From NCBI GenBank assembly GCA_934162195.1, contig CAKPHO010000005.1:6515-70514 (forward strand): DNA of 64,000 bases. The letters are read 5' to 3'. Every line of letters starts with the position of its first letter. Position 1 is the stretch's first letter. The notes under the pieces are model-generated. The model saw nothing but the letters and a program-made list of their open reading frames with translations, searched no databases and was not told the DNA's origin. Positions 1,722 to 54,772 of the stretch are shown piece after piece. The position numbers were made by a program, and so were the translations under genes. Origin of the DNA: an uncultured Bacilli bacterium (GTDB lineage: Bacteria > Bacillota_I > Bacilli_A > RF39 > UBA660).

Positions 1722-2001
1722 TTAATTATTAGTGTAAAGGTACAATTATTTGTGCCTTTCTTTTTTGTGAAATATGGGGGTATATTTAATCATACTATAA
1801 TATTAAATGAAAAAATAAACACAAAGAAGCTAGGCTTTTAAATAACCTAGATTTCTTTGCGTTTTTTTGCTGTGCCTTTATAGGAAGGGAGTTGTTGTAT
1901 AAATACATAAAACACAAAAAATATATATTATGACTGGATGTTTATAATAAATAAAAAAGGGTATAATTAGAATGTATAATAGAGAGAGGAGTAAGAAATA
2001 T
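1722..2001. repeat. Conserved upstream module, copy 1: G5 tract + TTTAATCATACTATAAT + hairpin/T-run + second -10 (GGGTATAATTA) + RBS
   Basis: ~80% nucleotide identity to 26056..26369 and partial identity to 53545..53720; G-run 1776..1780, TATAAT 1796..1801, hairpin ~1820..1860 with T7 at 1863..1869. Confidence 0.7.
1737..1769 (+). terminator. Putative intrinsic terminator after ftsX
   Basis: AAAGGTAC/GTGCCTTT imperfect stem followed by CTTTTTTG. Confidence 0.4.
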
Positions 2002-3618
2002 ATGAAAAAGAAAGGATTTACTTTAATAGAATTACTAGCGGTAATAGTAGTATTAGCAATAATAGCGTTAATTGCAACCCCAATAGTAACAAGAGTAATA
2101 AGTTCTAGTAAGGATTCTGCTAATAAAATAAGTGCAAGTAATTTTGCGTCTAAAGCAAATGAATATGTAATAGAAGAAAGAATGAATGGAAATATAAAAA
2201 GTGGCAATATTTTTGATGAAGTATCAGAAAGAATGAATGGTAAGAAACCTACTTCGGGAGTAGTTTATTCTGATGATAATGGAAACATTGCTTTAGCTTT
2301 AGTATTTGATAATAGATGTTATACAAAAGAGTATAATAGTGATGAAATAAAAACAGCTGACATTAATGAATGTCATGCTCCAGTAGACTATTTAGCTCTT
2401 GGAAATACAAATAATGATACAGAATTAACATTCTTTAATGGACCAATTAAAAAAGGTAGCGTTGAAAAAATAATATTTGTAAATAACACTAATGTACCTA
2501 CAGATGCAATAGGAAGTTGGAATGCGAGTGCAAGTGGAGATGGAAAAGTAATTGCTTGGTATAAAGATGAAGATAATAATAGTTTATATGAAGTATATAT
2601 AGGTGAAAATGGTGGAGTAAAAGCTAATCCTGATTCATCTAGATTATTTAGTTATTTTTCAAATTTAGTTAGTTTGGATTTAAAATATCTTGATACATCA
2701 AGTGTGACAGATATGTCTTTAATGTTTAATAACTGTTCAAAATTAACTACGCTTGATTTAAGTAGTTTTGATACGTCACAAGTGACAAGTATGCGAGGAA
2801 TGTTTCAATTGTGCACTAATTTAACAGCATTAGATTTAGGAAACTTTAATACTTCCAATGTTACAAGCATGAGGAATATGTTTAATGAATGTTCAAGTTT
2901 AACTACTTTAGATTTAAGTAATTTTGACACGTCAAATGTTACGACTATGTATGCTATGTTCCAAAAAACTTCAAATTTAACGATGTTGAATGTAAGTAGT
3001 TTTGATACATCGAAAGTAACCGATATGGCTTTTATGTTTAGTAAATGTCTTAATTTGCCAGAATTAGATTTAAGTAATTTTGATACTTCAAATGTAACAA
3101 ATATGAGCGCTATGTTTCAAAGAGATTCTAGTCTTACATCACTAGATGTAAGTAAGTTTAATACATCAAAAGTAACAGATATGTCTAGAATGTTCAGCTT
3201 AGTAAGAAATGTTAAATCATTAGACGTTTCTCACTTTGATACCTCAAAAGTAACTAATATGACTTGGATGTTTAATGAATGCAATAATTTAGAATCTTTA
3301 AATTTAAAAAGTTTTAATACAAAATTAGTAACAGATATGAGTTATATGTTTGAAAACTGTTATAATTTGACTGATTTAGATTTGAGCAGTTTTGAAACTA
3401 GCAAGTTACAAAATATGGAGCACATGTTTGGTGGTAATTCTAAATTGACAAATATTAATTTATCAAAGGCAACATTTACTGCAGTAACTCAATATTCTGA
3501 GATGTTTAATGGTTGTGGATTAACTAGTATTGCAGTAAAAGATGATGATGCAAAAACATTTATTGATGCTAGATTAAAAGAGGCAAATATTAATATTGAA
3601 GCAACAAAAGCAAACTAA
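2002..3618 (+). CDS. Prepilin-type (class III signal) N-terminus fused to ~23 consecutive DUF285/BspA-type leucine-rich repeat units
   Basis: Start at the RBS-supported ATG (GAGAGGAG, then 9 nt), in-frame with the ORF beginning at 1972. N-terminus KKGFTLIELLAVIVVLAIIALIATPIV is the canonical G|FTLIE prepilin cleavage/methylation motif. The C-terminal module is ~23 repeats of roughly 26 aa of the pattern LxxLDLSNFDTSNVTxMxxMF (DUF285 / mycoplasma-BspA LRR type), one of the recognised DGR target domain classes. Confidence 0.8.
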   Translation: MKKKGFTLIELLAVIVVLAIIALIATPIVTRVISSSKDSANKISASNFASKANEYVIEERMNGNIKSGNIFDEVSERMNGKKPTSGVVYSDDNGNIALALVFDNRCYTKEYNSDEIKTADINECHAPVDYLALGNTNNDTELTFFNGPIKKGSVEKIIFVNNTNVPTDAIGSWNASASGDGKVIAWYKDEDNNSLYEVYIGENGGVKANPDSSRLFSYFSNLVSLDLKYLDTSSVTDMSLMFNNCSKLTTLDLSSFDTSQVTSMRGMFQLCTNLTALDLGNFNTSNVTSMRNMFNECSSLTTLDLSNFDTSNVTTMYAMFQKTSNLTMLNVSSFDTSKVTDMAFMFSKCLNLPELDLSNFDTSNVTNMSAMFQRDSSLTSLDVSKFNTSKVTDMSRMFSLVRNVKSLDVSHFDTSKVTNMTWMFNECNNLESLNLKSFNTKLVTDMSYMFENCYNLTDLDLSSFETSKLQNMEHMFGGNSKLTNINLSKATFTAVTQYSEMFNGCGLTSIAVKDDDAKTFIDARLKEANINIEATKAN

Positions 3619-3648: not shown

Positions 3649-3692
3649 AAAAAATGGAAAGTTTAAAAATGTATGGACTTTTCATTTTTTTT
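3649..3692 (+). terminator. Intrinsic terminator downstream of the DUF285 pilin-like gene
   Basis: Imperfect hairpin AAATGGAAAGT...ACTTTTCATTT followed by T8. Confidence 0.5.
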
Positions 3693-3715
3693 GCTATATA
3701 ATAAAAATCAATTTT

Positions 3716-6037
3716 ATGGAGGTGATCTTTTTGATAAAAACAAACTTGCCAGTTATTTTGTTAAGAGGTCTTATATTGCTTCCAAATAACGAAATTAGAT
3801 TAGAATTTGATAATGATTTAAGCAAAAATATAATTGATGTGTCGGAATTGTTTCATGATAATATGTTACTAGTTGTAAGTTCTTTAAATCCTCTTGAAGA
3901 AATACCTACGGAAAAAGATTTACCTAGTATAGGTGTTGTTTCTAAAATAGTAAATAAGATTGAACTTCCAAATGGCAAAACACGTGTTATTATAAAAGGT
4001 ATTAATAGAGCTTATGTAAATGAATATTTAAATTTAAAACATCCTAGTGAAGTTTTAGAATCTATTATAACTAATATTGATGATAAAGAGATAGATTCTA
4101 AAATGGAAAAAATTATGATAAATAAGATAAAAAGAGAACTTGAAATATATATTAAGAAAGTTTCTTATACTAGTAATAGTATTCTTTCTCTAGTTCCTAA
4201 TATAAGTAGTTTATCAAAATTAACTGATATAGTTGTTCCTAATATTTTAATTGACAACAATCGCTTGCTTGTTTATTTAAATGAATCTGATCCTATGAAA
4301 AGAGGGGAGATGATTTTAGAAGATATATATTCTGAAAAAGAATCTTTTGAAATAGAAAAGCAAATCGATTTAAAAGTTAAGAAAAATATGGAAGACAGTC
4401 AAAAAGAATATCTATTACGTGAAAAGTTAAAGTTAATTAAAGAAGAACTGGGTGATGTTAGTTCCAAAGACGATGAAGTAGAATCTATTAGAAAAAAAAT
4501 AACAAAATTAAAAGCTAATGATAAAGTAAAAGAAAAATTAAATAGTGAATTAAAAAAATATGAATCTTTAAGTCAAGTTTCCCCAGAAGTAGGTATTACA
4601 AAAAATTATATTGATTGGTTATTAGAATTACCTTGGGGTGAGTATACAGCGGATAACTCTGATTTAGACAAAGTGTTAGAATCATTGAATAGAAGTCATT
4701 TTGGGTTAGAAAAAGTAAAGAATAGAATTATAGAATATCTTGCAGTCAAGATTAACGCAGATATGTTAAAAAGTCCAATTATATGTTTAGTTGGTCCCCC
4801 AGGAGTTGGTAAGACAACTTTAGCCCGTAGTATTGCAGAGAGTATAAATCGTAAATTTGTAAAAATTAGTGTTGGTGGGGTTAATGATGAAGCTGAAATA
4901 AAGGGACATCGTAGGACTTATCTTGGAGCAATGCCAGGAAAGATTATTCAAGCTATGAAAAAAGCAAAATCAAATAATCCCGTATTTCTAATTGATGAAA
5001 TAGATAAAATGACTAACAATATAAAAGGAGATCCAGCTAGCGCTTTACTTGAAGTGTTGGATCCAGAACAAAATGAATATTTTGTTGATAATTTTATTGA
5101 AGAAGAGTATGATTTATCAAAGGTTATGTTTATAACTACCGCTAATTCTTTAGATTCGATACCTGGACCACTAAGAGATAGATTAGAAATTATTGAGCTT
5201 AATAGTTATACTGAATATGAGAAAATAGATATAGCTAAGAAACATTTAATTCCTAGTTTGTTGGATAGTCACAACGCTAAAGATATAAAGATTTTAGATA
5301 GTTCTGTATTAGAAATAATTAGATATTATACTATGGAAGCAGGAGTTAGAAATCTTGAACGTAAATTAGAAGAAGTAATCAGAAAGATTATTACAGATAG
5401 GTTAAAAAATAAAAAAGAAGATGTGGTTATTGTTGATGATGTTTCTAAGTATCTTGGTAATAGAAAATACAGTTTTGGAAAACTAGAAAAGAATGAAGTA
5501 GGAGTAGTAAATGGTCTTGCTTATACACCTTTTGGTGGGGATATTATTAAAATAGAAGTAAATTATTATAAAGGACATGGTAATTTAATTTTAACTGGTT
5601 CTTTAGGTGATGTTATTAAAGAGAGTGCTCAAATAGCGCTTAGTTATGTAAGATCAAACGCTAGTACTTTTGGTATAGATAGTGAAAAATTTATTAAAAA
5701 TGATATACATATTCATATTCCTGATGGTTCTGTTCCTAAAGATGGGCCAAGTGCTGGAATAGCTATTACAACGGCAATTATTTCTTCTTTATCAAATCGT
5801 ATAGTAGATTCAAGTTTAGCTTATACTGGAGAAATAACTTTACGAGGTAATATACTTGCAATAGGTGGACTAAAAGAAAAAAGTATTGGAGCTTTGAGAA
5901 GCGGAATTAAAACGATTTATATACCAGAAGATAATACTAAAGATTTAGAAGAAATTCCTAATGAAATAAAAGAAAGAATAAATTATGTAAGTTTTAATAA
6001 TTATATGGAATTGTTTAAAAATTTAATTAAGAGGTAA
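3716..6037 (+). CDS. lon: ATP-dependent Lon protease
   Basis: N-domain LPVILLRG; Walker A GPPGVGKTT; proteolytic-domain serine motif PKDGPSAGIA. The annotated ATG at 3716 overlaps a GGAGGTGA RBS, so the true start may be TTG at 3731. Confidence 0.9.
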   Translation: MEVIFLIKTNLPVILLRGLILLPNNEIRLEFDNDLSKNIIDVSELFHDNMLLVVSSLNPLEEIPTEKDLPSIGVVSKIVNKIELPNGKTRVIIKGINRAYVNEYLNLKHPSEVLESIITNIDDKEIDSKMEKIMINKIKRELEIYIKKVSYTSNSILSLVPNISSLSKLTDIVVPNILIDNNRLLVYLNESDPMKRGEMILEDIYSEKESFEIEKQIDLKVKKNMEDSQKEYLLREKLKLIKEELGDVSSKDDEVESIRKKITKLKANDKVKEKLNSELKKYESLSQVSPEVGITKNYIDWLLELPWGEYTADNSDLDKVLESLNRSHFGLEKVKNRIIEYLAVKINADMLKSPIICLVGPPGVGKTTLARSIAESINRKFVKISVGGVNDEAEIKGHRRTYLGAMPGKIIQAMKKAKSNNPVFLIDEIDKMTNNIKGDPASALLEVLDPEQNEYFVDNFIEEEYDLSKVMFITTANSLDSIPGPLRDRLEIIELNSYTEYEKIDIAKKHLIPSLLDSHNAKDIKILDSSVLEIIRYYTMEAGVRNLERKLEEVIRKIITDRLKNKKEDVVIVDDVSKYLGNRKYSFGKLEKNEVGVVNGLAYTPFGGDIIKIEVNYYKGHGNLILTGSLGDVIKESAQIALSYVRSNASTFGIDSEKFIKNDIHIHIPDGSVPKDGPSAGIAITTAIISSLSNRIVDSSLAYTGEITLRGNILAIGGLKEKSIGALRSGIKTIYIPEDNTKDLEEIPNEIKERINYVSFNNYMELFKNLIKR

Positions 6038-8610: not shown

Positions 8611-10248
8611 ATGAAGAATAATAAGGGTTTTGCAATAAGTAGTGTTGTTTATGCAATGCTAATCCTTTTTTTAGGACTTATCTTATTAATTTTAGGAAAT
8701 TTAGCTAGCAGAAAAGCTATGTTCGATAAAGAAAAAAATGAGATACTTATGAGATTTAATAATTACGGATCTAGTAAAAAATTTGAAAATGGTGAAGTGG
8801 TATACTTTAATGTGACGTCAGGAGAATTATGTTCGTCATCAGAATATACAGAAACCCAAAGTAATACAGGGGTAAAAGAAGGGTGTATGAAGTTTTATGC
8901 TTTCAATGATGATGGAAAAAATAAAGTAAATTTAATATTAGACCATAATACCACACAATATGCGGCATGGAATTCAAGTGGAAGTAATTCAAGTGGTCCA
9001 AAAGATTTGTTAGACCAATTAAAAGCAGATACAAGATTATGGAAAGGAACAGAACCCCCATCAAACTATACGATGGATCAAACAATACAGAAAAGTAATG
9101 CAAATTATAAAATTAATTATAGTACATATAAAGCAAGATTAATAACGGCTCAAGAAATAGCTAAAATAACTGGTTATAAAGAATGGGATGAAAAAAGTAG
9201 TACTAATGTATATTATTTTGATACCAAAACATCATCACCAAGTCCTACCTGCAAAAGTGGAAACACAACTGGATGCAAATATGGATGGTTATATGACAGA
9301 ACATACACAAGTTGTATAGATTATGGATGCTTGAATAATTCAAATGTATATATGATTGGTTATTGGACCGCATCATCATATAGTAATTCATCTAGTAGTG
9401 CATGGTATGTAAATTATGGTGGCTTTGTGGTTAGTGGTGGTGTTAGTACAACAAATTATTTTGGTGTTCGTCCGGTTATAGAAGTATTAAAATCAAAATT
9501 AGTAAAAACATATGCCAATGGAGAAGTAGTATATTTTAATGTAGATAATGGAACAAAATGTACATCCAGTGAAGCAGTAAGTACAACAGGAACAAAGAGT
9601 GGATGTATGAAATTCTATGCCTTTAATGATGTTGGAAAAGATACAGTAAATTTAATCTTAGATCATAATACAACAGCAACAGTAGCATGGAATAATACAT
9701 ATAAAAATGATAGTGGTAGCATAGCCAATGCTAAAGGTCCAAAAGAATTATTAGACAAATTAAAAAGTGATACATCATCATGGAAAGGAACAATAACGCC
9801 AGCAAATTATACAATGGATCAATCAAATCAACCAAGCAATGCAAAATATACAATAGATTATAGTAGTTATAAAGCAAGATTAATAACAGCACATGAAATA
9901 GCTCAAATAACAGGAAATACGACATGGGATGAAAAGACTGCAAATAATATTTATTATTTAGACAGCAAAACAACTACTGCAAGTGCCACATGTAAAAGTG
10001 GGAATACAAGTGGATGTAGTTATGGTTGGCTATATGATAGAACATCTACTTCATGTACAACATATGGATGTTTAAATAATTCAGATAAAGAAACACACGG
10101 TTATTGGACTGCCTCTTCTCGTGCCGGCTACTATAGCCTCGCTTGGCGCGTGGGCAACGATGCTTACGTGAGCAGCGACGGCGTTTTCAATTCAAGCAGC
10201 GAAGGTGTGCGCCCAGTTATAACTGTCTTGAAATCTAGCCTTATATAA
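8611..10248 (+). CDS. Pilin-like membrane-anchored protein with two tandem DUF1566/Lcl-like modules
   Basis: N-terminus KGFAISSVVYAML is a hydrophobic helix, prepilin-like but without Glu+5. Two ~270-aa internal repeats (NGEVVYFNV...GCMKFYAFND...YKARLITA.EIA.ITG...GVRPVI.VLKS). Shares its C-terminal motif with the paralogs 18290, 26370 and 53768. Confidence 0.75.
   Translation: MKNNKGFAISSVVYAMLILFLGLILLILGNLASRKAMFDKEKNEILMRFNNYGSSKKFENGEVVYFNVTSGELCSSSEYTETQSNTGVKEGCMKFYAFNDDGKNKVNLILDHNTTQYAAWNSSGSNSSGPKDLLDQLKADTRLWKGTEPPSNYTMDQTIQKSNANYKINYSTYKARLITAQEIAKITGYKEWDEKSSTNVYYFDTKTSSPSPTCKSGNTTGCKYGWLYDRTYTSCIDYGCLNNSNVYMIGYWTASSYSNSSSSAWYVNYGGFVVSGGVSTTNYFGVRPVIEVLKSKLVKTYANGEVVYFNVDNGTKCTSSEAVSTTGTKSGCMKFYAFNDVGKDTVNLILDHNTTATVAWNNTYKNDSGSIANAKGPKELLDKLKSDTSSWKGTITPANYTMDQSNQPSNAKYTIDYSSYKARLITAHEIAQITGNTTWDEKTANNIYYLDSKTTTASATCKSGNTSGCSYGWLYDRTSTSCTTYGCLNNSDKETHGYWTASSRAGYYSLAWRVGNDAYVSSDGVFNSSSEGVRPVITVLKSSLI
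10126..10248 (+). other. GC-shifted 3' segment, candidate DGR variable repeat (VR)
   Basis: Codon usage switches abruptly to GCC/GGC/CGC/AGC/GAC/AAC in a 28% GC gene. Aligns codon-for-codon with 54640..54772 of the paralog (the only template-like partner in this window), differing mainly at codon positions 1 and 2 with C retained at position 3. Confidence 0.5.
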
Positions 10249-10294: not shown

Positions 10295-10502
10295 ATAAAA
10301 ACTTTGAGCTTGAGGAGTAAACTAAAGCGTTTTAAAGAGAGTCTATGGTTGGTGGAAATAGATAAATTAATTAGTTGAAGGTAGCAAGCTAGTTGAATAT
10401 CTAAGTAAATAGGATATTACGTATATTATGCGTTAAATAATTAAGGTGTAGAAATACATAAATTAAGGTGGTACCACGTAAACTCACGTCCTTATCTGGG
10501 AT
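10295..10502 (+). promoter_or_regulatory. T-box riboswitch leader upstream of valS
   Basis: AGAGAG box; conserved T-box sequence AAGGTGGTACCACG at ~10468..10481; terminator hairpin ACTCACGTCC/GGATGTGAGT followed by a T-run immediately before the RBS. Confidence 0.7.
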
Positions 10503-13808: not shown

Positions 13809-14168
13809 ATGAAAATGAATAAGAAAGGTTTTACTTTAATTGAATTATTAGCAGTTATCGTAGTATTAGCTATTATCGCTTTAATCGCTACTCCAATTGT
13901 TATGAGTACAATTAATAAAGCTCAAGAAGGTGCAAATAAGAGATCTGTAGAAGGTTACATGAAAGCTTATGAAGCAGCATACTATGAATATATGCTTGAA
14001 AATGGTGGTGCTGAACCAGCAACTAAATTAACTTCAGGTATTGATTATAATGGTGCTACAGTTGAATGTGCAACAATTACAGTAACAGCTGATAAAAAAT
14101 TCAGTGCTACTTGTACAGTAAATGGTAAGACTTACTCATATGCAAATGGGAAAGCTGATAATAAATAA
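13809..14168 (+). CDS. Type IV major-pilin-like protein (prepilin with C-terminal disulfide loop)
   Basis: NKKGFTLIELLAVIVVLAIIALIATPIV class III signal; 119 aa; two Cys near the C-terminus (CATITVTADKKFSATC) typical of the pilin D-region; own promoter and terminator. Confidence 0.8.
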   Translation: MKMNKKGFTLIELLAVIVVLAIIALIATPIVMSTINKAQEGANKRSVEGYMKAYEAAYYEYMLENGGAEPATKLTSGIDYNGATVECATITVTADKKFSATCTVNGKTYSYANGKADNK

Positions 14169-18218: not shown

Positions 18219-18245
18219 TTGACACAGAAAATTAGCTGTTATAAA
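18219..18245 (+). promoter_or_regulatory. Promoter of pilin-like gene 18290 (TTGACA ... TGtTATAAA)
   Basis: TTGACA 18219..18224; extended -10 TGTTATAAA 18237..18245 (15-nt spacer). Confidence 0.45.
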
Positions 18246-18289
18246 ATTAATACAGTAATAGTAGTAGTAAAGTATAGGAGGTAAAGATT

Positions 18290-19336
18290 ATGAAGAAAAA
18301 AGGCTTTACTTTAATAGAATTACTAGCGGTAATAGTAGTATTAGCTATCATTGCTCTAATAGCAACACCAATAGTAATGAGTGCAATTGAAAAATCAAAG
18401 AAAGGAGCAGCTGAGAGAAGTGCGGATAGCTACATCAAACAAGTAGAAACAGCAGTAGCAACAGAACGACTAGATGGAAATGAAGTCCAAAATGGAACAT
18501 ACGAAATAGATGGTGAAGGGAATTTAACAGGAAAAGGATTGCCAAACAATAAATTAGTTATTGACATGAAAGGAAATAAACCAATATCTGGAACAATAAC
18601 AATAAAAGATGGACAAGTAACAAATGATTCTAAGATGACAATTGGTGATTATGATGTTAAATATAATGAAGATAAAAAGAAATATGAAGCAACAAAAAGT
18701 GGTGGGACAAATCCAGATACACCATCAGTAAAAACATTATGTACTAAAAAAGAAGGAGTAGATTTAAATAATTTAGCTTCTGGAAATGAATTTACTTGTG
18801 AATTAGGAGATAATGATGCAAAAACATTTTATGTCTTAGAAACAAATGAGGATAATGTATCATTAATAATGAATGCTAATATTGATTCAAATGGAAAAGC
18901 TATAACGCCAGATAACATTCCAGATGATAAAGGATTAGTTGCATGGTCGGAAGACGGAAGCAATCATAAGGATGATGATGAATCAGCACAAGCAGTAACA
19001 GCAAAGGCATACTTATCATCAAGTACAACAAATTGGACTAAACTAAATCAATCACAAATTAAATTACCAACGGCAAGTCAGATTGCAGCAACGGCAGGGA
19101 CAACATTTGATGGTGTTAGTATGATAATGGGTTTACCAGCATGGATATATGATAACATGGATGGTACAGCAAATGCTGTATCTGGAATACCTGCTTATTG
19201 GACATCAACACCTTATAAATCTAATGATACTAATGCTTGGGGTGGTGGTGCTTACTCCAATCTAAGTAATTATAGTAGCGCAAGTACTTACGGTATACGT
19301 CCAGTAATAACTGTCTTAAAATCTGATCTTTCGTAA
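18290..19336 (+). CDS. Modular pilin-like protein: prepilin N-terminus + DUF1566/Lcl-like C-terminal module
   Basis: MKKKGFTLIELLAVIVVLAIIALIATPIVM; the first ~45 codons are nearly identical at nucleotide level to 26370 and 53768; C-terminal motif YWTSTPY...AWGGGAY...YGIRPVITVLKSDLS. Confidence 0.8.
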   Translation: MKKKGFTLIELLAVIVVLAIIALIATPIVMSAIEKSKKGAAERSADSYIKQVETAVATERLDGNEVQNGTYEIDGEGNLTGKGLPNNKLVIDMKGNKPISGTITIKDGQVTNDSKMTIGDYDVKYNEDKKKYEATKSGGTNPDTPSVKTLCTKKEGVDLNNLASGNEFTCELGDNDAKTFYVLETNEDNVSLIMNANIDSNGKAITPDNIPDDKGLVAWSEDGSNHKDDDESAQAVTAKAYLSSSTTNWTKLNQSQIKLPTASQIAATAGTTFDGVSMIMGLPAWIYDNMDGTANAVSGIPAYWTSTPYKSNDTNAWGGGAYSNLSNYSSASTYGIRPVITVLKSDLS

Positions 19337-19361: not shown

Positions 19362-19410
19362 AAAATAGTTAAAATATGATCAATTGATTGTGATTTTAAC
19401 TATTTTTTAA
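19362..19410 (+). terminator. Strong intrinsic terminator (14-bp perfect stem AAAATAGTTAAAAT / ATTTTAACTATTTT)
   Basis: Perfect inverted repeat with a 17-nt loop, followed by TTTTAATTG. Confidence 0.7.
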
Positions 19411-21674: not shown

Positions 21675-21695
21675 TCATTTCTGAAGATTATTTTC
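21667..21695. terminator. Bidirectional terminator hairpin (GAAAATAATC-9nt-GATTATTTTC) containing both convergent stop codons
   Basis: Perfect 10-bp inverted repeat; the TAA (21672..21674) of the + gene and the TGA (21675..21677, minus strand) of the fic-like gene lie inside the stem. Confidence 0.6.
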
Positions 21696-22298
21696 TTTTT
21701 CTTTTTGAACTATAGCTTTCATAAATTCCATTTCTAACATGCTAGGATATATGTATCTTTGTACTGTTCCCATTAAAAGATTTTTACTATCCATTTTAGT
21801 ATAATCAATATCTAGTGGACCACAAGGAAGGTTTTTGCTTTTCTCTAAAACAAATTCTCTCATAAATATTCTTATTGTTCTTCCATTTCCTTCTCTAAAG
21901 GGATGAACCATAATTAAATCGTGATAAAAAGGAGCAATATAAAAGGCTAATTCTGGAATTGAAGAAATATTTCCAATCTTATTTAAATCATTAAGAATTT
22001 CATCTAAAGATTTAGTGATATTTTGTGGATTGCAGAAACTAGTCCTATCTTTTCCTAAAGTGCATAATCTTATTTCTCCTGCAAAAGGATATATTTTTCC
22101 AAAAACAAATTTATGAATTTTTTTTAAATCTTCAATATCAAAATTTTTACATATTGGTTTTAAATATAGCGTAGCCATTGTTTTTCTAGTAATAGCTCTT
22201 TCTGTTTCTTTTAATTTTTCTAAGCTTGTAATATTTAAATTATTTTTTAAAACATCTGTTCCTTCAATTAAATAATCATCCCAATGATCTATTTCCAT
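21675..22298 (-). CDS. Fic/Doc-family protein (AMPylase-type)
   Basis: Canonical Fic motif HPFREGNGRTIR (HxFx[D/E]GNGRxxR); start taken at MEIDHW, supported by an AGGATGG RBS. Confidence 0.8.
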   Translation of the reverse strand: MEIDHWDDYLIEGTDVLKNNLNITSLEKLKETERAITRKTMATLYLKPICKNFDIEDLKKIHKFVFGKIYPFAGEIRLCTLGKDRTSFCNPQNITKSLDEILNDLNKIGNISSIPELAFYIAPFYHDLIMVHPFREGNGRTIRIFMREFVLEKSKNLPCGPLDIDYTKMDSKNLLMGTVQRYIYPSMLEMEFMKAIVQKEKENNLQK

Positions 22299-22443
22299 TA
22301 TAACCATCCTTAATTTTAGTCTTTTTTTTGTTATTGTCTTCGGTTTTTGTTTTAATGTCAACACTTACTTCTTCAAAGCTAATATTTGCATCTGCCTGTC
22401 TAAGCGCTTCTTTAAGTTTTTTAAGCCTTGCAATCTTATCCAT
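22276..22443 (-). CDS. Small Lys-rich ORF (55 aa) overlapping the fic start; possible partner or antitoxin-like protein
   Basis: ATG preceded by AAGGAAG; MDKIARLKKLKEALRQADANISFEEV...; overlaps the first 23 nt of fic; not in the ORF track (<60 aa). Confidence 0.3.
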   Translation of the reverse strand: MDKIARLKKLKEALRQADANISFEEVSVDIKTKTEDNNKKKTKIKDGYNGNRSLG

Positions 22444-26055: not shown

Positions 26056-26369
26056 TTGTTGTTGTATACTAAATATTATAAAGGTAATGATAGTATGGTT
26101 AAACAGAAAGTATAAAATTAACTTAATAACTCAAATTTGAACTGTGAAGTGGGTGGTATATTTAATCATATTATAAAATTAAATAAAAAAAGCACAAAGA
26201 AACTAGAACTATAAAAGGTCTAAGTATCTTTGTTTTTTTTGCTAAACTTTTATAAAGAAAATGTTGTATAAGTACATAAAGCATCAAAAATATGTATTAT
26301 GACTAGATGTTTATTTTAAATAAAAAAGGGTATAATTAAAATGTAAATCGTATAAGGAGGTAAGAAAAA
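26056..26369. repeat. Conserved upstream module, copy 2 (G3TG2 variant of the G-tract)
   Basis: Aligns with 1722..2001 over ~250 bp; GGGTGG 26151..26156 sits where copies 1 and 3 have G5/G9; TTTAATCATATTATAAA box; degenerate hairpin with T8 (26232..26239); GGGTATAATTA; GGAGG RBS. Confidence 0.7.
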
Positions 26370-27311
26370 ATGAAAAATAAAAAAGGATTTACACTTATCG
26401 AATTACTAGCGGTAATAGTTGTGTTAGCAATAATAGCACTAATAGCAACACCAATAGTAATGAATACAATAAAAAATGCGAAGAAAGGGGCAGCTGAAAG
26501 AAGTGCCGATAGCTACATAAAACAAGTAGAAACAACAGTAGCAGAAGCAAGGTTAGATAATAAAACAGTACCAGATGGAACATATCAAATAGATGAAGAA
26601 GGAAATTTAACAGGAGCAGGCTTACCAGATGGTAAATTAAAAATAGAAATGAATGGAAATAAGCCAACTTCTGGGATAATAGCAATATCAAATGGAGAAG
26701 TTTCACAAACAGGAACAACGATGACAATAGGAGAATATAATTTACGTTATAATGAAACATCAAAAAGCTATACTGCTGAAGTAGCAATTAAATTATGTAA
26801 AAAAGCATCAAGTGTAAATTTAAGTGATTTAAAATTAGGTGACGAATTTACATGTGATTTAGGTGATGAAGAAACAACTAAAAACTTAGTATTCTATGTG
26901 TTAGAAAAAAATGGTTCACAAGTATCTTTGATTATGAATAAAGTATTTACAACTCCAGCTGGAGATAAAGTTCCATATTCAATGAAAGCTAATGTATTTA
27001 AACTTTTCAAATATACTAAACTAGATGAATCACAAATTACTTTACCAAGTGGAGAGCAAATTGCCGCAGCAAGTAATAATACAACTTGGACACCAAGCGG
27101 TTCTAATACAGCTTTAGTTACAAATCAAATGCCAGATTGGTTAAAAACAAATTTAGATGTTACTGGTACATTCTGTTATTGGACATCAACAGCTTATGAT
27201 TCTAGTAAACAATGGGGCGCTGGATTAAAGGGGTTATATGCTGAAACAGCAGGTAATGCAACTTGTGGATTCCGTCCGGTTATAACAGTTTCAATATCTG
27301 CTTTAGGATAG
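26370..27311 (+). CDS. Modular pilin-like protein: prepilin N-terminus + DUF1566/Lcl-like C-terminal module
   Basis: MKNKKGFTLIELLAVIVVLAIIALIATPIVM; YWTSTAYDSSKQWGAG...CGFRPVITVSISALG. Confidence 0.8.
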   Translation: MKNKKGFTLIELLAVIVVLAIIALIATPIVMNTIKNAKKGAAERSADSYIKQVETTVAEARLDNKTVPDGTYQIDEEGNLTGAGLPDGKLKIEMNGNKPTSGIIAISNGEVSQTGTTMTIGEYNLRYNETSKSYTAEVAIKLCKKASSVNLSDLKLGDEFTCDLGDEETTKNLVFYVLEKNGSQVSLIMNKVFTTPAGDKVPYSMKANVFKLFKYTKLDESQITLPSGEQIAAASNNTTWTPSGSNTALVTNQMPDWLKTNLDVTGTFCYWTSTAYDSSKQWGAGLKGLYAETAGNATCGFRPVITVSISALG

Positions 27312-30080: not shown

Positions 30081-31169
30081 TTGTATATGCGTAGATTAAA
30101 ACCAAAAGTTAAAATAGCGTTAATTATAGTTTCTGCTATTTTGTTGTTTGTAATATTATGTGGTTTTGTATATAGAATAGGAATAGGAAGAGTTAGTAAA
30201 GATGAAACTTTAAAAGAAATAGAGGTAACGTCAGGAAATACTTATATGTCTGTTTCTAAAACTTTGAAAGATAATCATTTAATAAAATCAGAATTTTTCT
30301 TTAAAGTTTATGTTAAGTTACATAAACCTACTTCACTTCAAGCAGGCAAATATGAATTGAGTGAAAATATGAGTGTTAAAGAAATAATTAGCGTTTTATC
30401 AAATGGTAGTACATATAATCCTAATGTTGTTTCACTTACTTTTAAAGAAGGTATTAATATGCGTAATGTTGCTAAAATAATCGCAGAGAATACTGAAAAT
30501 ACAGAAGAAGATGTTTTTGTAACACTTTCAGATACTAATTATCTAGATGAATTAATAAAAAAATACTGGTTTGTTACAGAAGCGGTAAAAAATAAAAATA
30601 TTTATTATTCACTAGAAGGTTATTTATTTCCAAACACATACAGTGTTAATAAAACGGATAGCGTAAAAAAAATATTTGAGATGATGCTTGATAATATGTC
30701 ATTAAAGTTATCACCTTATAAGGAACAAATTCAAAGTAGTACGCATAATGTTCATGAAATACTAACACTTGCATCTATTATTGAATTAGAGGCTGGAAAT
30801 AGTAATGATCGTAGTGGTGTAGCTGGAGTTTTTTATAACAGATTAAAATCTGGATGGTCATTAGGTAGTGATGTTACTACTTATTATGGTGCAAAAATAG
30901 AACTACACGAAAGAGATTTATATCAAAGAGAAATAGATGAATATAATGCTTATAATACAAGAAGTAGTCAGATGGCAGGGCGTTTACCAGTTGGGCCAAT
31001 CTGTCTTCCTAGTTTAGATTCTATTTCTGCAGCTGTTAATCCAACCATTTCTGAATATTATTATTTTGTAGCTGATAAAAATAAAAAAACATATTTTTCT
31101 AAAACATATGAAGAACATGCACAGACTGTTGCTTCATTAAAGAGTCAAGGTTTATGGTACGAATATTAG
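30081..31169 (+). CDS. mltG: Endolytic murein transglycosylase MltG (YceG family)
   Basis: N-terminal TM anchor; YceG-like domain; conserved position after yrzB. Confidence 0.75.
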   Translation: MYMRRLKPKVKIALIIVSAILLFVILCGFVYRIGIGRVSKDETLKEIEVTSGNTYMSVSKTLKDNHLIKSEFFFKVYVKLHKPTSLQAGKYELSENMSVKEIISVLSNGSTYNPNVVSLTFKEGINMRNVAKIIAENTENTEEDVFVTLSDTNYLDELIKKYWFVTEAVKNKNIYYSLEGYLFPNTYSVNKTDSVKKIFEMMLDNMSLKLSPYKEQIQSSTHNVHEILTLASIIELEAGNSNDRSGVAGVFYNRLKSGWSLGSDVTTYYGAKIELHERDLYQREIDEYNAYNTRSSQMAGRLPVGPICLPSLDSISAAVNPTISEYYYFVADKNKKTYFSKTYEEHAQTVASLKSQGLWYEY

Positions 31170-31747
31170 ACTTAGAAGATTATGCTCATAAAAATAATAT
31201 TCCTATTATGATGAAAGATGGAATTGAGTTTTTATTAGACTATATTAAAAATAACAATATAAAAAATATTCTAGAAATTGGTTCAGCAATTGGTTATTCG
31301 GCAATCAAAATGGCTTTAGTAGATGATAGTATTAAAGTTACAACAATAGAAAGAGATGAAGAAAGGTATAAGGAAGCTTTAAAAAATATTAAAGATTTTA
31401 ATTTAAATAGTAGAATAAATATTATTTTAAGTGATGCTTTTGAAGTAGAATTTAATGATAAATATGATTTAATATTTATTGATGCAGCTAAGAGTCAGTA
31501 CATCAAGTTCTTTGAGAAGTTTAAAGAAAATTTAAATGATAATGGAGTTATTGTTTCTGATAACTTAAATTTTCATGGACTTGTTCATGCGGATGAGAAA
31601 AATCTTAGTAGAAATGTCAGAGGCCTTGTTCGAAAATTAAATAATTATGTTGATTATTTAAAAAGTAATAAAGAATTTAAAACTTTATTTTATGATATTG
31701 GTGATGGAATTAGTATCAGTAAAAAGGTAGGTGTTAAAGATGAATAA
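31154..31747 (+). CDS. Class I SAM-dependent O-methyltransferase (YrrM-like, family 3)
   Basis: SAM-binding motif ILEIGSAIGYSAI; DLIFIDAAKSQY; conserved position after mltG. Confidence 0.7.
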   Translation: MVRILDLEDYAHKNNIPIMMKDGIEFLLDYIKNNNIKNILEIGSAIGYSAIKMALVDDSIKVTTIERDEERYKEALKNIKDFNLNSRINIILSDAFEVEFNDKYDLIFIDAAKSQYIKFFEKFKENLNDNGVIVSDNLNFHGLVHADEKNLSRNVRGLVRKLNNYVDYLKSNKEFKTLFYDIGDGISISKKVGVKDE

Positions 31748-32078
31748 AAAAGGATTTACTTTAGTTGAACTTATTGGAGTAGTGGTTATATTAGGGCTTA
31801 TTGCTCTAGTGGCTTTTCCAGCTTTATTAAATCAAATTAAAGATAGTAAGAAACAAGTTAGTGATAGTCAAAAAGAAATCATTATTTCTGCCGCAAAAAG
31901 CTATGTTTCTGAAAACAAAAATAATTATGCAGATATGTCATCTTTCGAAATTCCTGTTAGTGACTTAATAAATGGTAGTTATCTTGATAAAAACATTATT
32001 AATTCACTTTCTAATAATAATAATATAGTAGTTACTTTTAATAACGGAACTTATGATGTAGTAATAAAAACAGGTTAG
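31740..32078 (+). CDS. Small pseudopilin-like protein (class III signal)
   Basis: MNKKGFTLVELIGVVVILGLIALVAFPALL is a G|FTLVE prepilin motif; 113 aa; RBS AAGGTAGGTG; overlaps the 3' end of the methyltransferase gene. Confidence 0.7.
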   Translation: MNKKGFTLVELIGVVVILGLIALVAFPALLNQIKDSKKQVSDSQKEIIISAAKSYVSENKNNYADMSSFEIPVSDLINGSYLDKNIINSLSNNNNIVVTFNNGTYDVVIKTG

Positions 32079-32138
32079 TTAAAAATAAAAGTAGAAATAT
32101 CTACTTTTTTTTGTTATAATGTCTTCGAGGTGATTGTT

Positions 32139-32990: not shown

Positions 32991-32991
32991 G

Positions 32992-37480: not shown

Positions 37481-37846
37481 ATGAAAAAAGGATTTACTTT
37501 GATAGAATTATTAGCTGTTTTAGTTGTTTTAGGGTTACTTGGGCTAATAGTTATTCCTACTGTGGACAAAATATTAAAAGATAGTAGAAATGATTTATAT
37601 GATTTACAAATAAAAAATATAGAAGATGGGGCTAGAAATTGGGCAGCTAAAAATCCATTAATACTCCCTGAAAATGGTAATTCAATAACCAAAACAATAG
37701 CTGAATTAGAAGAAGAGGGATTTATTGAAATGGATGTAAAAAATCCTAAGACAGGGGACACTTTTTGTGATGATTCTTATGTAACAATAACTAATACAGG
37801 TAGTGGGTTTACTTATAGTTACGCTGTTGATTCAGGAAGTTGTTAA
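37481..37846 (+). CDS. Small pseudopilin-like protein (class III signal)
   Basis: MKKGFTLIELLAVLVVLGLLGLIVIPTV; 121 aa; C-terminal Cys pair. Confidence 0.7.
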   Translation: MKKGFTLIELLAVLVVLGLLGLIVIPTVDKILKDSRNDLYDLQIKNIEDGARNWAAKNPLILPENGNSITKTIAELEEEGFIEMDVKNPKTGDTFCDDSYVTITNTGSGFTYSYAVDSGSC

Positions 37847-41710: not shown

Positions 41711-43783
41711 ATGAAAAATAAAAAAGCATTTACTTTAATAGAATTACTAGCGGTAATAGTAGTATTATCTGTGGTAGTAGCTATTACAGTACCTGTGGTT
41801 TCTAAATCAATAGAAAATTCTAAAAAAAATAGTGCTATAGAGAGTGCTAATGGTCTAATTCAATCTGCAGAATATTATTTTTTAACAGCGTCTCCAAAAT
41901 ATGGTAAAATTGATGTTTTAAATGAAAAATTGAATTTTAAAGGTGAAAAACCAGACTTTGGAGAAGTTGAAATAAATAAACAAGGAAAATCAAGAATTTA
42001 CACATATGTTAATGGTTATTGTGTAACAAAAGAGTTTGGAACTGAGTTATATGCAAATAAAACGACTAAAGAAGATTGTAGTTGGTTTGGAACAGATAAT
42101 TATGAAACAACTGATGGAACTACATTTACTTTAAATAATCAATCAGTAAAAAACTATTTAATATATGGAAATAGTACTCAAGCAACAAGAATTGGTAAGA
42201 ATTTATTTAATCCATCTGCATGGAGTACAGCTGTAACAGGTGGTGGTTTGACAGTTCAATATTTAGAAGATCAAGATTGCTTTTTAATAAATGGTACTGC
42301 AACTGCAACTACTATTGTAGCAGCAAAGTATATAAATATCCCAAGTGAAGTTAACACCTCGTATGTTTTATCTACTCAATATGTAAGTGGAAGTATAGAT
42401 AGAACTAATGGTGAAAGTAGTAAATATGCGGTAGCATATTTTGGTAATGGTGACGAAATTAATACAGCAAATAATTGGTATGAAATTAATATGCAAAATA
42501 GTGATGTAAATAATTCTGCTAAAATAAATAGTAAAAGCTATATTACAAGATTTTGGTTTTATGTCAATAAAGGAGTTAAATTTAATAATTATAAAGTTAG
42601 AATTCAATTAGAAAAGGGAACAACTGCAACTTCGTATGAAGAATATGGAGTAATGCCAAGTCCAGCATTTCCAAGTGAAGTAAAAAGTACTGGAGATTTA
42701 CTAACAAGTAGTAATTGCTCTAGTTATGGAAGTGATGCTTGTAATAATGTAGGTAAGTATGTAATACAAGTTAAGGATAGAGGCAAGAATTTATTTGATC
42801 ATAGTTATTTAAAGCAACAGGACTCATCGGGTGGATTAACAATGACAAGTACTGGTGACGTTATAACAATTAATGGAAAATTAACTAATCCTAGTAATAT
42901 AAAACTTTCTGATGTTTTTCCAAATATATTTGATGTAAATAAAACCTATACATTAAAAATTGATGTAGTAGGTGGAAGCGGGGCAATTGGAGAAGGAACA
43001 GGAATAACGTTTGCGTTTTCTTTATTTAATTCATCAAACACTAAATATATAAGAACAAATGTAAATGCAACAGCACTAGATAATATAGCTTCTGTAACCT
43101 TTTCTGGAAGTGTTTTTGCAGGAGAAGAGAAATTACACCTTTTATTACAGAATTGGAGATTAGGAAATACTTACAGTAATTATCAAGTAAGGATTCAAAT
43201 AGAGGAAGGTAGTAGTGCAACATCTTATGAAAGTTACAAAGCCGCTTTAACAAATATATATTTAGATGAACCGTTAAGAAAAGTAGGGGATTATGCAGAT
43301 TATATAGATTTTAATAATAAAAAAGTTGTTAGAAATGTATCTAAGAAAGTATTTAACGGAACTGATAATGATGTTTATTGGGGTAAAAATATAGATTATG
43401 GTGATTATGTATCATTTTACACTACATCTGATGTAAAGACTTTTAAAGGAATTAATGGATTAGGATATAGTAATGTAGCAAAAGTTACTTCATGGGATAA
43501 GATTTCAAATTCAAATGGTAATTATTGGTGGCAATTTTTACCTACTTCATATGGAATGAGAATAAATAAATCATATTTAAGTAATTATGATAGTGCTACA
43601 GATAAAATAGGTGTATTTAAAACTTGGTTAAAAAGTAATAATATTGAAGTTGTTCAAGCTTTAAATACACCAACAGAACAATCAATAAACTTACCAGAAA
43701 TAGAAGTGTTAGATGGAAATAGTACTTTATTAATAAATACTAGTGTTCAACCAAGTAATATTAAATTAACAACTAATAAATAA
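41711..43783 (+). CDS. Large modular pilin-like protein (prepilin N-terminus + ~650-aa C-terminal region with an internal repeat)
   Basis: MKNKKAFTLIELLAVIVVLSVVVAITVPVV; internal duplication YKVRIQLEKGTTATSYEEYG / YQVRIQIEEGSSATSYESYK. Confidence 0.75.
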   Translation: MKNKKAFTLIELLAVIVVLSVVVAITVPVVSKSIENSKKNSAIESANGLIQSAEYYFLTASPKYGKIDVLNEKLNFKGEKPDFGEVEINKQGKSRIYTYVNGYCVTKEFGTELYANKTTKEDCSWFGTDNYETTDGTTFTLNNQSVKNYLIYGNSTQATRIGKNLFNPSAWSTAVTGGGLTVQYLEDQDCFLINGTATATTIVAAKYINIPSEVNTSYVLSTQYVSGSIDRTNGESSKYAVAYFGNGDEINTANNWYEINMQNSDVNNSAKINSKSYITRFWFYVNKGVKFNNYKVRIQLEKGTTATSYEEYGVMPSPAFPSEVKSTGDLLTSSNCSSYGSDACNNVGKYVIQVKDRGKNLFDHSYLKQQDSSGGLTMTSTGDVITINGKLTNPSNIKLSDVFPNIFDVNKTYTLKIDVVGGSGAIGEGTGITFAFSLFNSSNTKYIRTNVNATALDNIASVTFSGSVFAGEEKLHLLLQNWRLGNTYSNYQVRIQIEEGSSATSYESYKAALTNIYLDEPLRKVGDYADYIDFNNKKVVRNVSKKVFNGTDNDVYWGKNIDYGDYVSFYTTSDVKTFKGINGLGYSNVAKVTSWDKISNSNGNYWWQFLPTSYGMRINKSYLSNYDSATDKIGVFKTWLKSNNIEVVQALNTPTEQSINLPEIEVLDGNSTLLINTSVQPSNIKLTTNK

Positions 43784-47700: not shown

Positions 47701-47786
47701 ATTAATAAAAACCAATGAGAAATTCATTGGTTTTTTTGTACTATAAAAAGGAAATCGAATACTTTTGTGGAATATTAGAAGTGAAA

Positions 47787-53767: not shown

Positions 53768-54772
53768 ATGAAATTAAAAAATAAACACGGATTTACACTT
53801 ATAGAATTACTAGCGGTAATAGTAGTATTAGCAATAATCGCACTAATCGCAACACCAATAGTAATGAATACAATAAAAAAATCAAAGAAAGGAGCAGCTG
53901 AGAGAAGTGCGGATAGCTACATAAAACAAGTAGAAGTAGCAGTAGCAGAAGAACGACTAAATAAAAATGAAGTACTAGAAGGAGAATATCAAATAACAAG
54001 TGATGGAAATCTATGTAGAGATAAAAGTGCAAGTTGTTCAGATGATAACAAAATAAAAATAGAAATGAGCGGAACAAAACCAACATCAGGGAAAATAAAG
54101 ATAACAAATGGAAGTGTTGATCAATCATCATCAAGTATGATAATAGGAGATTATACTGTTTCATATAATTCTACTAAGAAAACATATGAAGCAATAGAGA
54201 AAGGAAATACACCACAAGTAGAAGTATTGTGTACAGCAAAAACAGCAGCAACAAAAGGAAATGTACCACAAGGACAATTTGCCTATGGAGATGGATATAC
54301 ATGTGAATTAGGTGATAATGATGCAAAAACATTCTTTGTACTAGAAACAAATGGAGATAATGTATCATTAATCATGGATAGAAACATAGATTCAAATGGT
54401 AAAGGAACAACAAGTGGAGGAAATACAGTAGCTTGGTGTAAATCAGGAAGTAATAATACATGTGCTGCAGATAGAGCATTAGAATACTTAAAAACAAGTA
54501 CAACAGGATGGACAAAATTAACAGAATCACAAATAAGCTTACCTTCATATGATCAAATATATAAAGCTGCGGGTAATAAAACTTCGGGATTACCAACATG
54601 GCTATATGAAAATAATGTATATGGTTATTGGACATCAACCCCTCATGCGTCTAACTCTAACCGCGCTTGGCTTGTGAACTACCACGGCAACTTGAACTTC
54701 AACTTCGTCGACTTCGACGACAGCTATGGCGTTCGTCCAGTTATAACTGTCTCAAAATCACAATTAGGATAA
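53768..54772 (+). CDS. Modular pilin-like protein: prepilin N-terminus + DUF1566/Lcl-like C-terminal module with a GC-shifted 3' end
   Basis: NKHGFTLIELLAVIVVLAIIALIATPIVM; first ~55 codons nearly identical to 26370 at nucleotide level; C-terminus YWTSTPHASNSNRAWLVNYHGNLNFNFVDFDDSYGVRPVITVSKSQLG. Confidence 0.8.
   Translation: MKLKNKHGFTLIELLAVIVVLAIIALIATPIVMNTIKKSKKGAAERSADSYIKQVEVAVAEERLNKNEVLEGEYQITSDGNLCRDKSASCSDDNKIKIEMSGTKPTSGKIKITNGSVDQSSSSMIIGDYTVSYNSTKKTYEAIEKGNTPQVEVLCTAKTAATKGNVPQGQFAYGDGYTCELGDNDAKTFFVLETNGDNVSLIMDRNIDSNGKGTTSGGNTVAWCKSGSNNTCAADRALEYLKTSTTGWTKLTESQISLPSYDQIYKAAGNKTSGLPTWLYENNVYGYWTSTPHASNSNRAWLVNYHGNLNFNFVDFDDSYGVRPVITVSKSQLG
54640..54772 (+). other. GC-shifted, AAC/NNC-codon-rich 3' segment, candidate DGR variable repeat (VR)
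   Basis: 15 of 16 consecutive codons end in C (aac tac cac ggc aac ttg aac ttc aac ttc gtc gac ttc gac gac agc); composition differs sharply from the rest of the gene; aligns codon-for-codon with 10126..10248, the only template-like partner in this window. Confidence 0.5.

Follow-up and report, generated by a model that had tools for sequence, protein, structure and literature searches.

What kind of proteins are encoded by the pilin-like genes that recur along a chromosomal segment of an uncultured gut-associated member of Bacillota, and by which process do their C-terminal parts come to differ? The segment analysed here (the window) is a 64-kb stretch of contig CAKPHO010000005.1 with a G+C content of 27.3% and with nearly all genes on the + strand; it is part of a 71.5-kb metagenome contig of the European Nucleotide Archive (ENA; ERZ27286918 k141_862837). 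Genes are named by the first nucleotide of their coding sequence in the window, and the focal gene is 18290.

The genes are paralogs dispersed on the chromosome and encode modular, type IV pilin-like surface proteins. The explanation of the whole that we hold, with considerable confidence, combines this modular family with a lectin-type subfamily diversified by a diversity-generating retroelement (DGR) and with recombination. The lectin-type subfamily, of which 18290 is a member, is a DGR target family. In the proposed scheme, each protein would have a class III leader ending in G or A at position -1, a pilin module with F1, E5 and P22, an alpha1 helix of ~54 residues and a small beta head, and a linker that joins this module to an interchangeable C-terminal binding module, which may be C-type-lectin-like, a DUF285/PARCEL leucine-rich repeat (LRR), or of another type.

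The pilin-like family and gene 18290

All nine genes with class III (prepilin) N-termini listed in a preliminary description of the window, including the Glu-less 8611, were recovered at their positions, dispersed over the window. The N-terminal motif is G/FTL[IV]E (slash, cleavage site) in seven of the nine, A/FTLIE in 41711, and GFAISS, without Glu5, in 8611. A degenerate DNA pattern for FTLIELLAV has seven sites in the window compared with 0.00 expected from 100 shuffles, and eight of the nine genes pass the curated cut-offs of both PF07963 and TIGR02532; 8611 passes neither. The preliminary description counted five large genes of 313-690 amino acids (aa); the size range holds, but open reading frame (ORF) lengths give six (2002, 8611, 18290, 26370, 41711, and 53768; see the table). 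The 6.5 kb of contig that precede the window contain at least one further member and probably two, and the density is roughly one gene per 6-7 kb, with at least ten genes on the 71.5-kb contig. The genes lie scattered, one by one, between housekeeping genes, and each has a promoter and a terminator of its own. Identity as ComGC (NF040999) or GspG (TIGR01710) was rejected, since the best scores of 25-37 bits are far under the equivalog cut-offs of 75 and 88.85. A PHROGs search gave matches restricted to the pilin N-terminus.

The structure of the 18290 protein was predicted with AlphaFold2 (AF2) from an alignment of 48 homologues; the model has a predicted local distance difference test score of 88 and is not a solved structure. 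It consists of a long alpha1 helix on a beta-sheet head, a linker, and an extra module, that is, the arrangement of a pilin and of a modular pilin. The predicted alpha1 matches the solved pilins PilE1 (8pfb), PAK (1oqw), and GspG (5wda). In the alignment, mature F1, E5 and P22 (P27 of the precursor) and two cysteines, C151 and C170, are invariant. Together with the profile hits, the predicted fold bears out the earlier view of a paralogous family built like PilB and PilC of Streptococcus sanguinis.

The extra module of the 18290 model is a lectin-like domain whose closest matches are the C-terminal domain of Legionella Lcl and DGR variable proteins such as TvpA; other matches are Thermus TaqVP, Bordetella phage Mtd, the Bacteroides type V pilin 4eps, and many animal C-type lectins. 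Lcl is a collagen-like protein, as are the products of two window genes (60212-61081 and ~63090-64000). TvpA, TaqVP and Mtd are classic DGR scaffolds, and the family was therefore examined for DGR activity.

This domain is common to 18290, 26370, 53768, and 8611, the last of which contains two copies. For Lcl_C/DUF1566 (PF07603), 53768 scores 17.7 bits compared with a gathering threshold of 34.9, and for DUF6273 (PF19789) it scores 21.4 compared with 23.5, while 18290 has no hit to either; one relative (L030) is above the DUF6273 threshold at 27.4 bits. The domain thus resembles Lcl_C/DUF6273 at the fold level only. Other large genes carry other modules. In particular, 2002 scores 212.9 bits with PF03382 and 302.5 bits with TIGR02167, above the cut-offs, and the 41711 protein contains two similar segments with the ends RIQLEKGTTATSYEEYG and RIQIEEGSSATSYESYK and has no Pfam, NCBIfam or PHROG match beyond its N-terminus.

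The variable region of gene 53768

The main evidence for diversification comes from the variable region (VR) in the 3' part of 53768. In this gene, 14 of 15 consecutive codons (54677-54721) end in C, compared with a background maximum of 4 of 15 and a mean of 0.65 over 10,476 codon windows. When the VR is compared with that of a 92-100% identical gene at another locus (L144), its 34 codons differ at 18 sites, all of them at codon positions 1-2, whereas the rest of the gene contains 21 such differences and 22 at position 3 (p = 7e-5 for the contrast). Fourteen close homologues have 90-92% identity before the VR and 44-65% within it; they keep the scaffold YWTSTPxASxSxxAWxVxxxGxLxxxxVxxxxxxGVRPVITV and vary only at x.

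The corresponding template repeat (TR) was found by querying a protein collection with a hypothetical all-Asn template peptide, which retrieved short pseudo-ORFs encoded by TRs. A 102-nt TR is present on two ENA contigs of 604 and 505 nt (L145 and L146) from other samples and is identical in both. Compared with positions 54639-54740, it has mismatches at 13 of its 34 adenines and at only one of its 68 other bases (Fisher 1e-6). The homology ends at CGTCCAG, after which the VR continues with TTATAACTGTCT and the TR with ATTTCC. On its sequence, TTATAACTGTCT is a candidate for an element resembling the initiation of mutagenic homing site; this flank is conserved among VR-bearing copies, yet it also encodes the conserved VITV strand. 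An adenine-masked search for a TR in the window, its contig, and the first 144 loci gave no match.

These comparisons point to adenine-specific mutagenesis from an Asn-codon-rich TR as the process by which the last ~34 codons of 53768 before G-V-R-P were written. Adenine-directed mutagenic retrohoming, a process that the preliminary description leaves out of account, is the main diversifier of the C-terminal part of at least this gene.

The same locus, next to tetR, was compared in ten other assemblies. The flank is ~98% identical and there are at least three very different VR alleles; the VRs of three syntenic alleles (L152, L154, and L157) are 73-75% identical, compared with ~98% in the flank, and the VR of L152 has 20 changes at A-sites and 4 others. 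Five syntenic assemblies from different samples carry the exact VR of the window. Six of the ten contigs (L153-L158) stop at the VR, just past it, or at most ~130 nt upstream. Because contigs stop around the VR and the TR occurs only on contigs of 505-604 nt, it is evident that DGR repeats and paralogy break up the assemblies of this species.

Related loci were scanned for the motifs of DGR-type reverse transcriptases (RT; IGxxxSQ...YxDD) and for AAC-rich stretches. Complete cassettes (TR, bAvd, and RT) are located in related metagenome-assembled genomes (MAGs) beside GFTLIELLAV pilin-like genes that start with GFTLIELLAVIV. For example, L017 has the order target, TR, MutS_I-like gene, bAvd (70 bits), and RVT_1; its TR and VR are 116 nt long, and all 16 mismatches between them are at TR adenines. 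In L030 there are two VRs in one target, with adenine mismatches of 7 of 7 and 11 of 13, and in L041 a TR lies directly upstream of a family member. The order in L147 and L148 is MutS_I-like gene, bAvd, RT, TR, and then the start of a GFTLIELLAV gene. The MutS_I-like gene, which is small and encodes a product resembling MutS domain I, is found by bAvd and RT in L017 (12207-12584), L147 (217-627), and L148 (143-553).

A 21-mer, AACGGCAACTTGAACAACAAC, was considered as a lineage marker and rejected: metagenome and viral collections contain it as a widespread core of DGR TRs in unrelated organisms and phages. This stretch, which encodes NGNLNNN, is present in TRs of very different organisms or phages of 26-61% G+C (L094-L143), and is a part of the lectin-fold VR scaffold that is conserved at the nucleotide level across many DGRs.

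Not every lectin-type gene has such a region. There is no excess of C-ending codons in 18290, 26370, or the first repeat of 8611, and none of these three has a VR that differs from a TR almost solely at TR adenines. The second repeat of 8611 does contain a VR-like segment, for which an adenine-masked search and comparison with the TR contigs found no TR. Among 46 distinct family C-termini in related loci, 13 are rich in C-ending codons.

The region of 18290 equivalent to the VR has background codon usage (4 of 44 codons end in C), has no difference in a 98% identical relative (P0001), and is under purifying selection in comparison with a syntenic, 84% identical orthologue (P0002), the proportions of nonsynonymous and synonymous differences (pN and pS) being 0.02-0.07 and 0.2-0.5. 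It does not align to the TR, and only 39 nt past it match the TR contig. On these grounds, DGR activity at 18290 itself was rejected. The VR-equivalent of this paralog is not, or is no longer, diversified, and the gene is shaped by purifying selection and mosaic recombination.

Recombination and the conserved ends

The preliminary description proposed that the ends of the genes are conserved at the nucleotide level between paralogs while the middles diverge, and that the family is shuffled by recombination. The conservation is real but uneven. The block GAA TTA CTA GCG GTA ATA GTx GTx TTA is common to 2002, 18290, 26370, 41711, and 53768, and contains CTA and GCG, which are rare codons (8% each of Leu and Ala codons); their sharing at the same positions in five genes has a probability of ~1e-11 under independence. 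The alpha1 block has different codons in the small pilins 13809, 31740, and 37481, and long 5' likeness (~300 nt, 73-79%) is found only among 18290, 26370, and 53768. Upstream, 2002 and 26370 are 79% identical in non-coding DNA, including a promoter-like box and a hairpin terminator. This conserved upstream element (see the table), possibly an attenuator or a terminator that insulates the genes and moves along with them, has no match in Rfam: a search of the window returned two T-box leaders only. Because pN is 0.03-0.09 and pS is 0.25-0.48 over codons 0-30, most of the 5' similarity outside the shared rare codons and upstream DNA is amino-acid constraint.

At the 3' end, a 19-mer is present only in the four lectin-type genes (0, 1, 1, and 3 mismatches, compared with 0.01 expected), and the similarity is limited to ~30 coding nt, with no conservation past the stop codon among paralogs. 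The 19-mer is not a recombination cassette, as had been suggested: it encodes the conserved last strand (G-V-R-P-V-I-T-V) of the C-type-lectin fold, and in 53768 the 3' end of the VR falls within it.

Recombination is nevertheless evident. Compared with a gene at another locus of another assembly (P0003), 18290 has pS of ~0 over codons 60-270 and is divergent at both ends, and P0003 carries the upstream element typical of 2002, 26370, and 53768; a mosaic of the same pattern is formed by 53768 and L082_359. In these mosaics the identical part is the middle, so that conserved ends with a divergent middle do not hold as a rule. The locus upstream of prfB contains, depending on the strain, a 359-aa lectin-type, a 539-aa LRR-type or a 704-aa LRR-type gene between flanks that are 92-97.5% identical, with junctions inside the first ~90 nt of the coding sequence and just after the stop codon. 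The tetR locus holds a 283-aa variant in L151, and strains differ in the second domain of 8611 by allelic replacement. On this comparative evidence, whole C-terminal modules are replaced at fixed loci between strains, and the replacement uses the shared 5' coding block, and in some copies the shared upstream element, as one junction.

Could recombination alone, with the 5' and 3' nucleotide blocks acting as homology arms for gene conversion, generate all of the variation? The mosaic genes, the module replacement with a junction in the 5' block, the shared rare codons and upstream element, and the allelic replacement in 8611 would all be expected, and to this extent the proposed shuffling stands. 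However, such cassettes leave unexplained the run of 14 C-ending codons in 15, the differences confined to codon positions 1-2, and the adenine-specific relation between TR and VR; they also lack 3' homology beyond ~30 coding nt or after the stop codon, and LRR-type and other genes swap without having the 3' motif. As a sole mechanism, recombination is refuted by the TR/VR evidence, and we consider this account very improbable. We give equally little credence to the opposite extreme, in which the conserved ends are explained by amino-acid constraint on alpha1 and the last beta-strand together with the extremely biased codon usage of a genome of 27% G+C. The pN and pS values of codons 0-30, which are like those of the rest of the gene, agree with it, as do the identical alpha1 that 13809 encodes with other codons and the synonymous variants that encode RPVITV. 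However, the rare CTA and GCG codons recur at the same positions in five genes, the 79% identity reaches non-coding DNA upstream of 2002 and 26370, and the run of C-ending codons opposes the codon bias of the genome. Constraint alone is thus contradicted for the VR and the shared rare codons, and holds for much of the remaining 5' similarity.

Several points weigh against the combined explanation, in which DGR mutagenesis and recombination act on a modular pilin-like family. There is no RT, bAvd or TR in the window or the rest of the 71.5-kb contig; the TR comes from short contigs of other samples (604 and 505 nt) that contain no RT, and its assignment to the same species, which we take as probable, is based on 67 identical bases among 68 non-adenine positions. 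The identical VR in five syntenic contigs means that mutagenesis is not continuous or that one clone is widespread. In the alleles of L154 and L157 there are many non-adenine differences and an insertion of 6 nt, which call for another TR variant or recombination. The focal gene 18290 has no DGR signature of any kind, and the lectin-type domain is under the Pfam cut-offs for Lcl_C and DUF6273. Finally, a motif scan of 1.39 Mb of related sequence found no A24-like ORF, and none of the three parts of pilus machinery considered below is in the window.

Features of the window and of two related loci; coordinates refer to the window unless a locus is named
Coordinates	Strand	Feature	Remarks
1776..1837	+	Conserved upstream element	Promoter-like TATAAT-containing box, then long hairpin with compensatory changes and T-run
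2002..3618	+	Pilin-like gene, 538 aa	DUF285/PARCEL LRR module, 78-nt repeats
8611..10248	+	Paralog, 545 aa	Glu-less N-terminus GFAISS; two lectin-like domains, repeat period 741 nt
~10110-10221	+	VR-like segment rich in C-ending codons	Second lectin-like domain of 8611; 9/15 and 18/44 codons C-ending
13809..14168	+	Small pilin-like gene, 119 aa	alpha1 amino acids as in large genes, codons different
18219..18282	+	Promoter-like site and ribosome-binding site of 18290	TTGACA-17-TAAAAT (18219-18247; 11/12 matches); AGGAGG (18277-18282)
18290..19336	+	Focal gene, 348 aa	Leader MKKKG/F; predicted cleavage after G5 (nt 18302-18304)
18311-18472	+	alpha1 helix, residues 8-61 of 18290	AF2 model
18494-18697	+	beta-sheet pilin head, residues 69-136 of 18290	AF2 model
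18704-18730	+	Low-confidence linker, residues 139-147 of 18290	AF2 model
18737-19333	+	Compact C-type-lectin-like domain, residues 150-348 of 18290	AF2 model
19196..19306	+	VR-equivalent of 18290 (YWTST...GIRP)	No DGR signature; conserved between strains
19365..19408	+	AT-rich hairpin, 11-bp stem ATAGTTAAAAT/ATTTTAACTAT, and T-run	Read from sequence
26152-26213		Conserved upstream element, further copy	
26370..27311	+	Lectin-type paralog, 313 aa	No VR signature (2/44 codons C-ending)
31740..32078	+	Small pilin-like gene, 112 aa	Between O-methyltransferase gene and U32 peptidase genes
37481..37846	+	Small pilin-like gene, 121 aa	Between HD-domain gene and Mur ligase genes
41711..43783	+	Pilin-like gene, 690 aa	A/FTLIE; unclassified, internally repeated C-terminal region
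53628-53689		Conserved upstream element, further copy	
53768..54772	+	Paralog, 334 aa; DGR target gene	Pilin and lectin-like architecture as in 18290
54639..54740	+	DGR VR of 53768, 102 nt	
54734..54752	+	3' 19-mer, CGTCCAG followed by TTATAACTGTCT	First 7 nt, end of TR-homologous VR; last 12 nt, VR-specific flank
L083 ~2880-2950		Copy of upstream element	Before family gene
L086 ~3690-3890		Copy of upstream element	Before family gene

Genomic setting and surface display

The neighbours of the family are ordinary chromosomal genes, namely those for FtsEX, Lon, valyl- and leucyl-tRNA synthetases (ValRS and LeuRS), LepA, ThyX, Tmk and RuvX, and, further on, MltG/YceG, GreA, Mur ligases, MraY, pyruvate kinase, and sporulation-related proteins. 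Family genes look like single-gene insertions that are co-oriented with housekeeping operons. For example, 31740 is located inside a conserved housekeeping array (31154-34197) of ruvX, mltG/yceG, and the O-methyltransferase gene, followed by two U32 peptidase genes and greA, and its start overlaps the end of the methyltransferase gene. The hairpin downstream of 18290 is probably a terminator, which would make the gene monocistronic; the terminator scan misses it because the scan demands G+C-rich stems.

Other features of the window include the two T-box leaders, at 10295-10496 and 48702-48882 (118 and 107 bits), which are located upstream of the ValRS and LeuRS genes; the former starts only ~50 nt past the stop codon of 8611. 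Genes for Bro-N domain proteins are found at 47715-48647 and 52671-53489, and a Fic protein is encoded at 21675-22364 on the - strand. The second Bro-N gene adjoins 53768 and is absent at the syntenic locus in L151. The two collagen-like proteins (GPxGxxG repeats) have non-collagen C-terminal domains, and their genes flank an unannotated 625-aa ORF (61093-62970); the three may form a surface set resembling BclA and the exosporium.

The preliminary description noted that the window has no pilus assembly ATPase, platform protein, or prepilin peptidase, and indeed no T2SSE ATPase, T2SSF platform protein or A24 prepilin peptidase is present among its ORFs. Motif scans for A24 peptidases and T2SSE ATPases in the window and related DNA returned only the CpaF of L039, and family genes are beside pilus machinery in only one of 80 genome loci. 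Because no peptidase, ATPase or platform gene was found, we infer processing and display on a filament from the invariant F1, E5, and P22. A prepilin peptidase encoded elsewhere would cleave the leader, and the pilin module would display the binding head at the cell surface, whether on a stalk anchored in the membrane or at, or along, a type IV filament. What the head binds there may be variable, for example glycans, other microbes, or surfaces of the host, and DGR mutagenesis and recombination would supply the variation in ligand and antigen.

In related gut Bacilli MAGs there is a conserved Tad/Flp operon that encodes Flp (G/QALVEY), two TadE proteins, a ParA-like protein, CpaF, TadB, and TadC (L039 1-7164; L087-L093); its TadB has an Ig-like domain, and murC directly follows the operon. 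Family members are located inside or beside this operon in three of the four organisms examined. The association was judged not significant, since the density of family genes makes chance proximity expected. Published pilins of TANB77 are of the Tad type, and the pilus literature on RF39/TANB77 is irrelevant here.

Two alternatives concern the route to the surface. It is conceivable, though rather doubtful, that the pilin-like N-terminus is a processing and anchoring device, and that the proteins are single wall-spanning membrane stalks, not pilus subunits, on which DGR and recombination still act. Sugar-binding proteins of Sulfolobus with class III signals are a precedent for anchored stalks. 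The solitary genes with their own promoters and terminators, the rarity of adjacent machinery, the very high density of at least ten genes on the contig, and the loss of Glu5 in 8611 are in favour of this possibility. However, F1, E5, and P22, which in type IV pilins matter for filament assembly and not for simple anchoring, are invariant in the 48 homologues, and the small pilins, which resemble ComGC/GspG at scores under the cut-offs, could build the body of a filament. Alternatively, the family members may be substrates of the Tad/Flp-type (CpaF) system of the related MAGs and not of a PilB/ComGA-type system. The conservation of the operon in related Bacilli favours this, as does the placement of family genes: L039/L091 have two pilin-like lectin genes, one frameshifted, between cpaF and tadB, and L092 has one member directly upstream of tadE. 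The chance proximity already noted tells against it, as does the lack of family genes within 10 kb in L087-L090. Moreover, GFTLIE and P22 place the N-terminus in the type IVa/Com/T2SS class and not in the Flp class, and the operon was not found in the window species, whose MraY neighbourhood in the window is without it. We consider Tad substrates an unlikely identity for the family.

Relation to known systems

The modular type IV pilins PilB, with a von Willebrand factor A module, and PilC, with a lectin module, of S. sanguinis and an InterPro survey of such proteins have been described (Raynaud et al. 2021, PMC8179133; Shahin et al. 2023, PMC9934059). The present proteins share with PilB and PilC a class III signal and small pilin module, a short linker, a bulky ligand-binding module, and a monoderm host. 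However, PilB and PilC are single-copy and encoded in a pil locus with the machinery, whereas the present family is dispersed, large, paralogous, hypervariable between strains, and partly DGR-diversified, and its incorporation into pili, unlike that of PilB and PilC, is predicted from sequence. The survey lists architectures with BspA-type LRR and with 'Fibrobacter paralogous' modules as some of the most frequent (PMC8179133). The C-terminal modules of 2002 and of a gene in L083 (2989-4608) are like the PARCEL/DUF285 surface proteins of Mycoplasma and Listeria (TIGR02167, PF03382). In mycoplasmas these proteins are lipoproteins; here, by contrast, the repeat module follows a pilin-like N-terminus, and at one locus some strains have this module and others the lectin module.

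Lectin-fold variable proteins of DGRs include Bordetella phage Mtd, Treponema denticola TvpA, and Thermus TaqVP, as well as DUF1566-type targets (PMC6642488, PMC11661182). The lectin-type genes are like them in the C-type-lectin-like fold, the VR at the C-terminal end, the AAC-rich TR, and the adenine-specific differences between TR and VR. As in known DGRs, there are cassettes of bAvd and RT in relatives, some with a MutS_I-like gene, and one TR can serve several VRs. Unlike known targets, however, the N-terminal carrier is a type IV pilin module, and in the window there is no TR or RT near the target. In the DGR surveys consulted (PMC6642488, PMC11661182), such a carrier appears only as a 'scarcely represented' GspG-type pilin domain. 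Apart from this passing mention in one survey, the literature that we searched contained no link between DGRs and type IV pilins or prepilin-type proteins. The DUF1566 domain at the C-terminus of Legionella pneumophila Lcl (PDB 8q4e; PMC11162425) belongs to a collagen-like trimer secreted by the type II secretion system (T2SS) without a pilin module, VR, or disulfide, whereas the family domain has the invariant C151 and C170 and is under the Pfam cut-off.

By analogy, the nearest functional counterpart would be found in gut Bacteroides, whose type V pili have tip adhesins diversified by DGRs (Macadangdang et al., bioRxiv 10.1101/2024.11.15.621889). Type V pili, which are made from lipoproteins by sortase-like strand exchange in diderms, are unrelated to the type IV pilin-like proteins with class III signals of monoderm Bacillota considered here.

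The architecture (modular type IV pilins) and the diversification (DGR lectin-fold targets) are each already known; the present family joins the two fields. Its unannotated members in gut metagenomes number in the thousands: a large protein collection contains more than 5,870 relatives of the focal protein, nearly all of them unnamed metagenome proteins, and its homologues are from gut MAGs labelled Bacilli, Tenericutes, Mollicutes or Erysipelotrichaceae, with several copies per genome. With a defined VR, TR, and set of scaffold positions, the family lends itself to work on ligand adaptation in commensals with reduced genomes. If the proteins are carried on pili, these abundant but uncultured Bacilli of the gut would possess a type IV filament with an adhesin that diversifies itself. 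As a tentative and rather speculative extension, the type IV pilin module may be a general carrier of a large, dispersed set of exchangeable binding heads (lectin-like, LRR, and others) in genome-reduced gut Bacilli: one filament system, possibly Tad-like or a pseudopilus stub, would display many heads, which would be renewed by a DGR acting in trans on several pilin genes and by module swapping via the 5' block. If true, this would be a Gram-positive type IV counterpart of the DGR-diversified type V pili of Bacteroides and of the variable surface lipoproteins of mycoplasmas.

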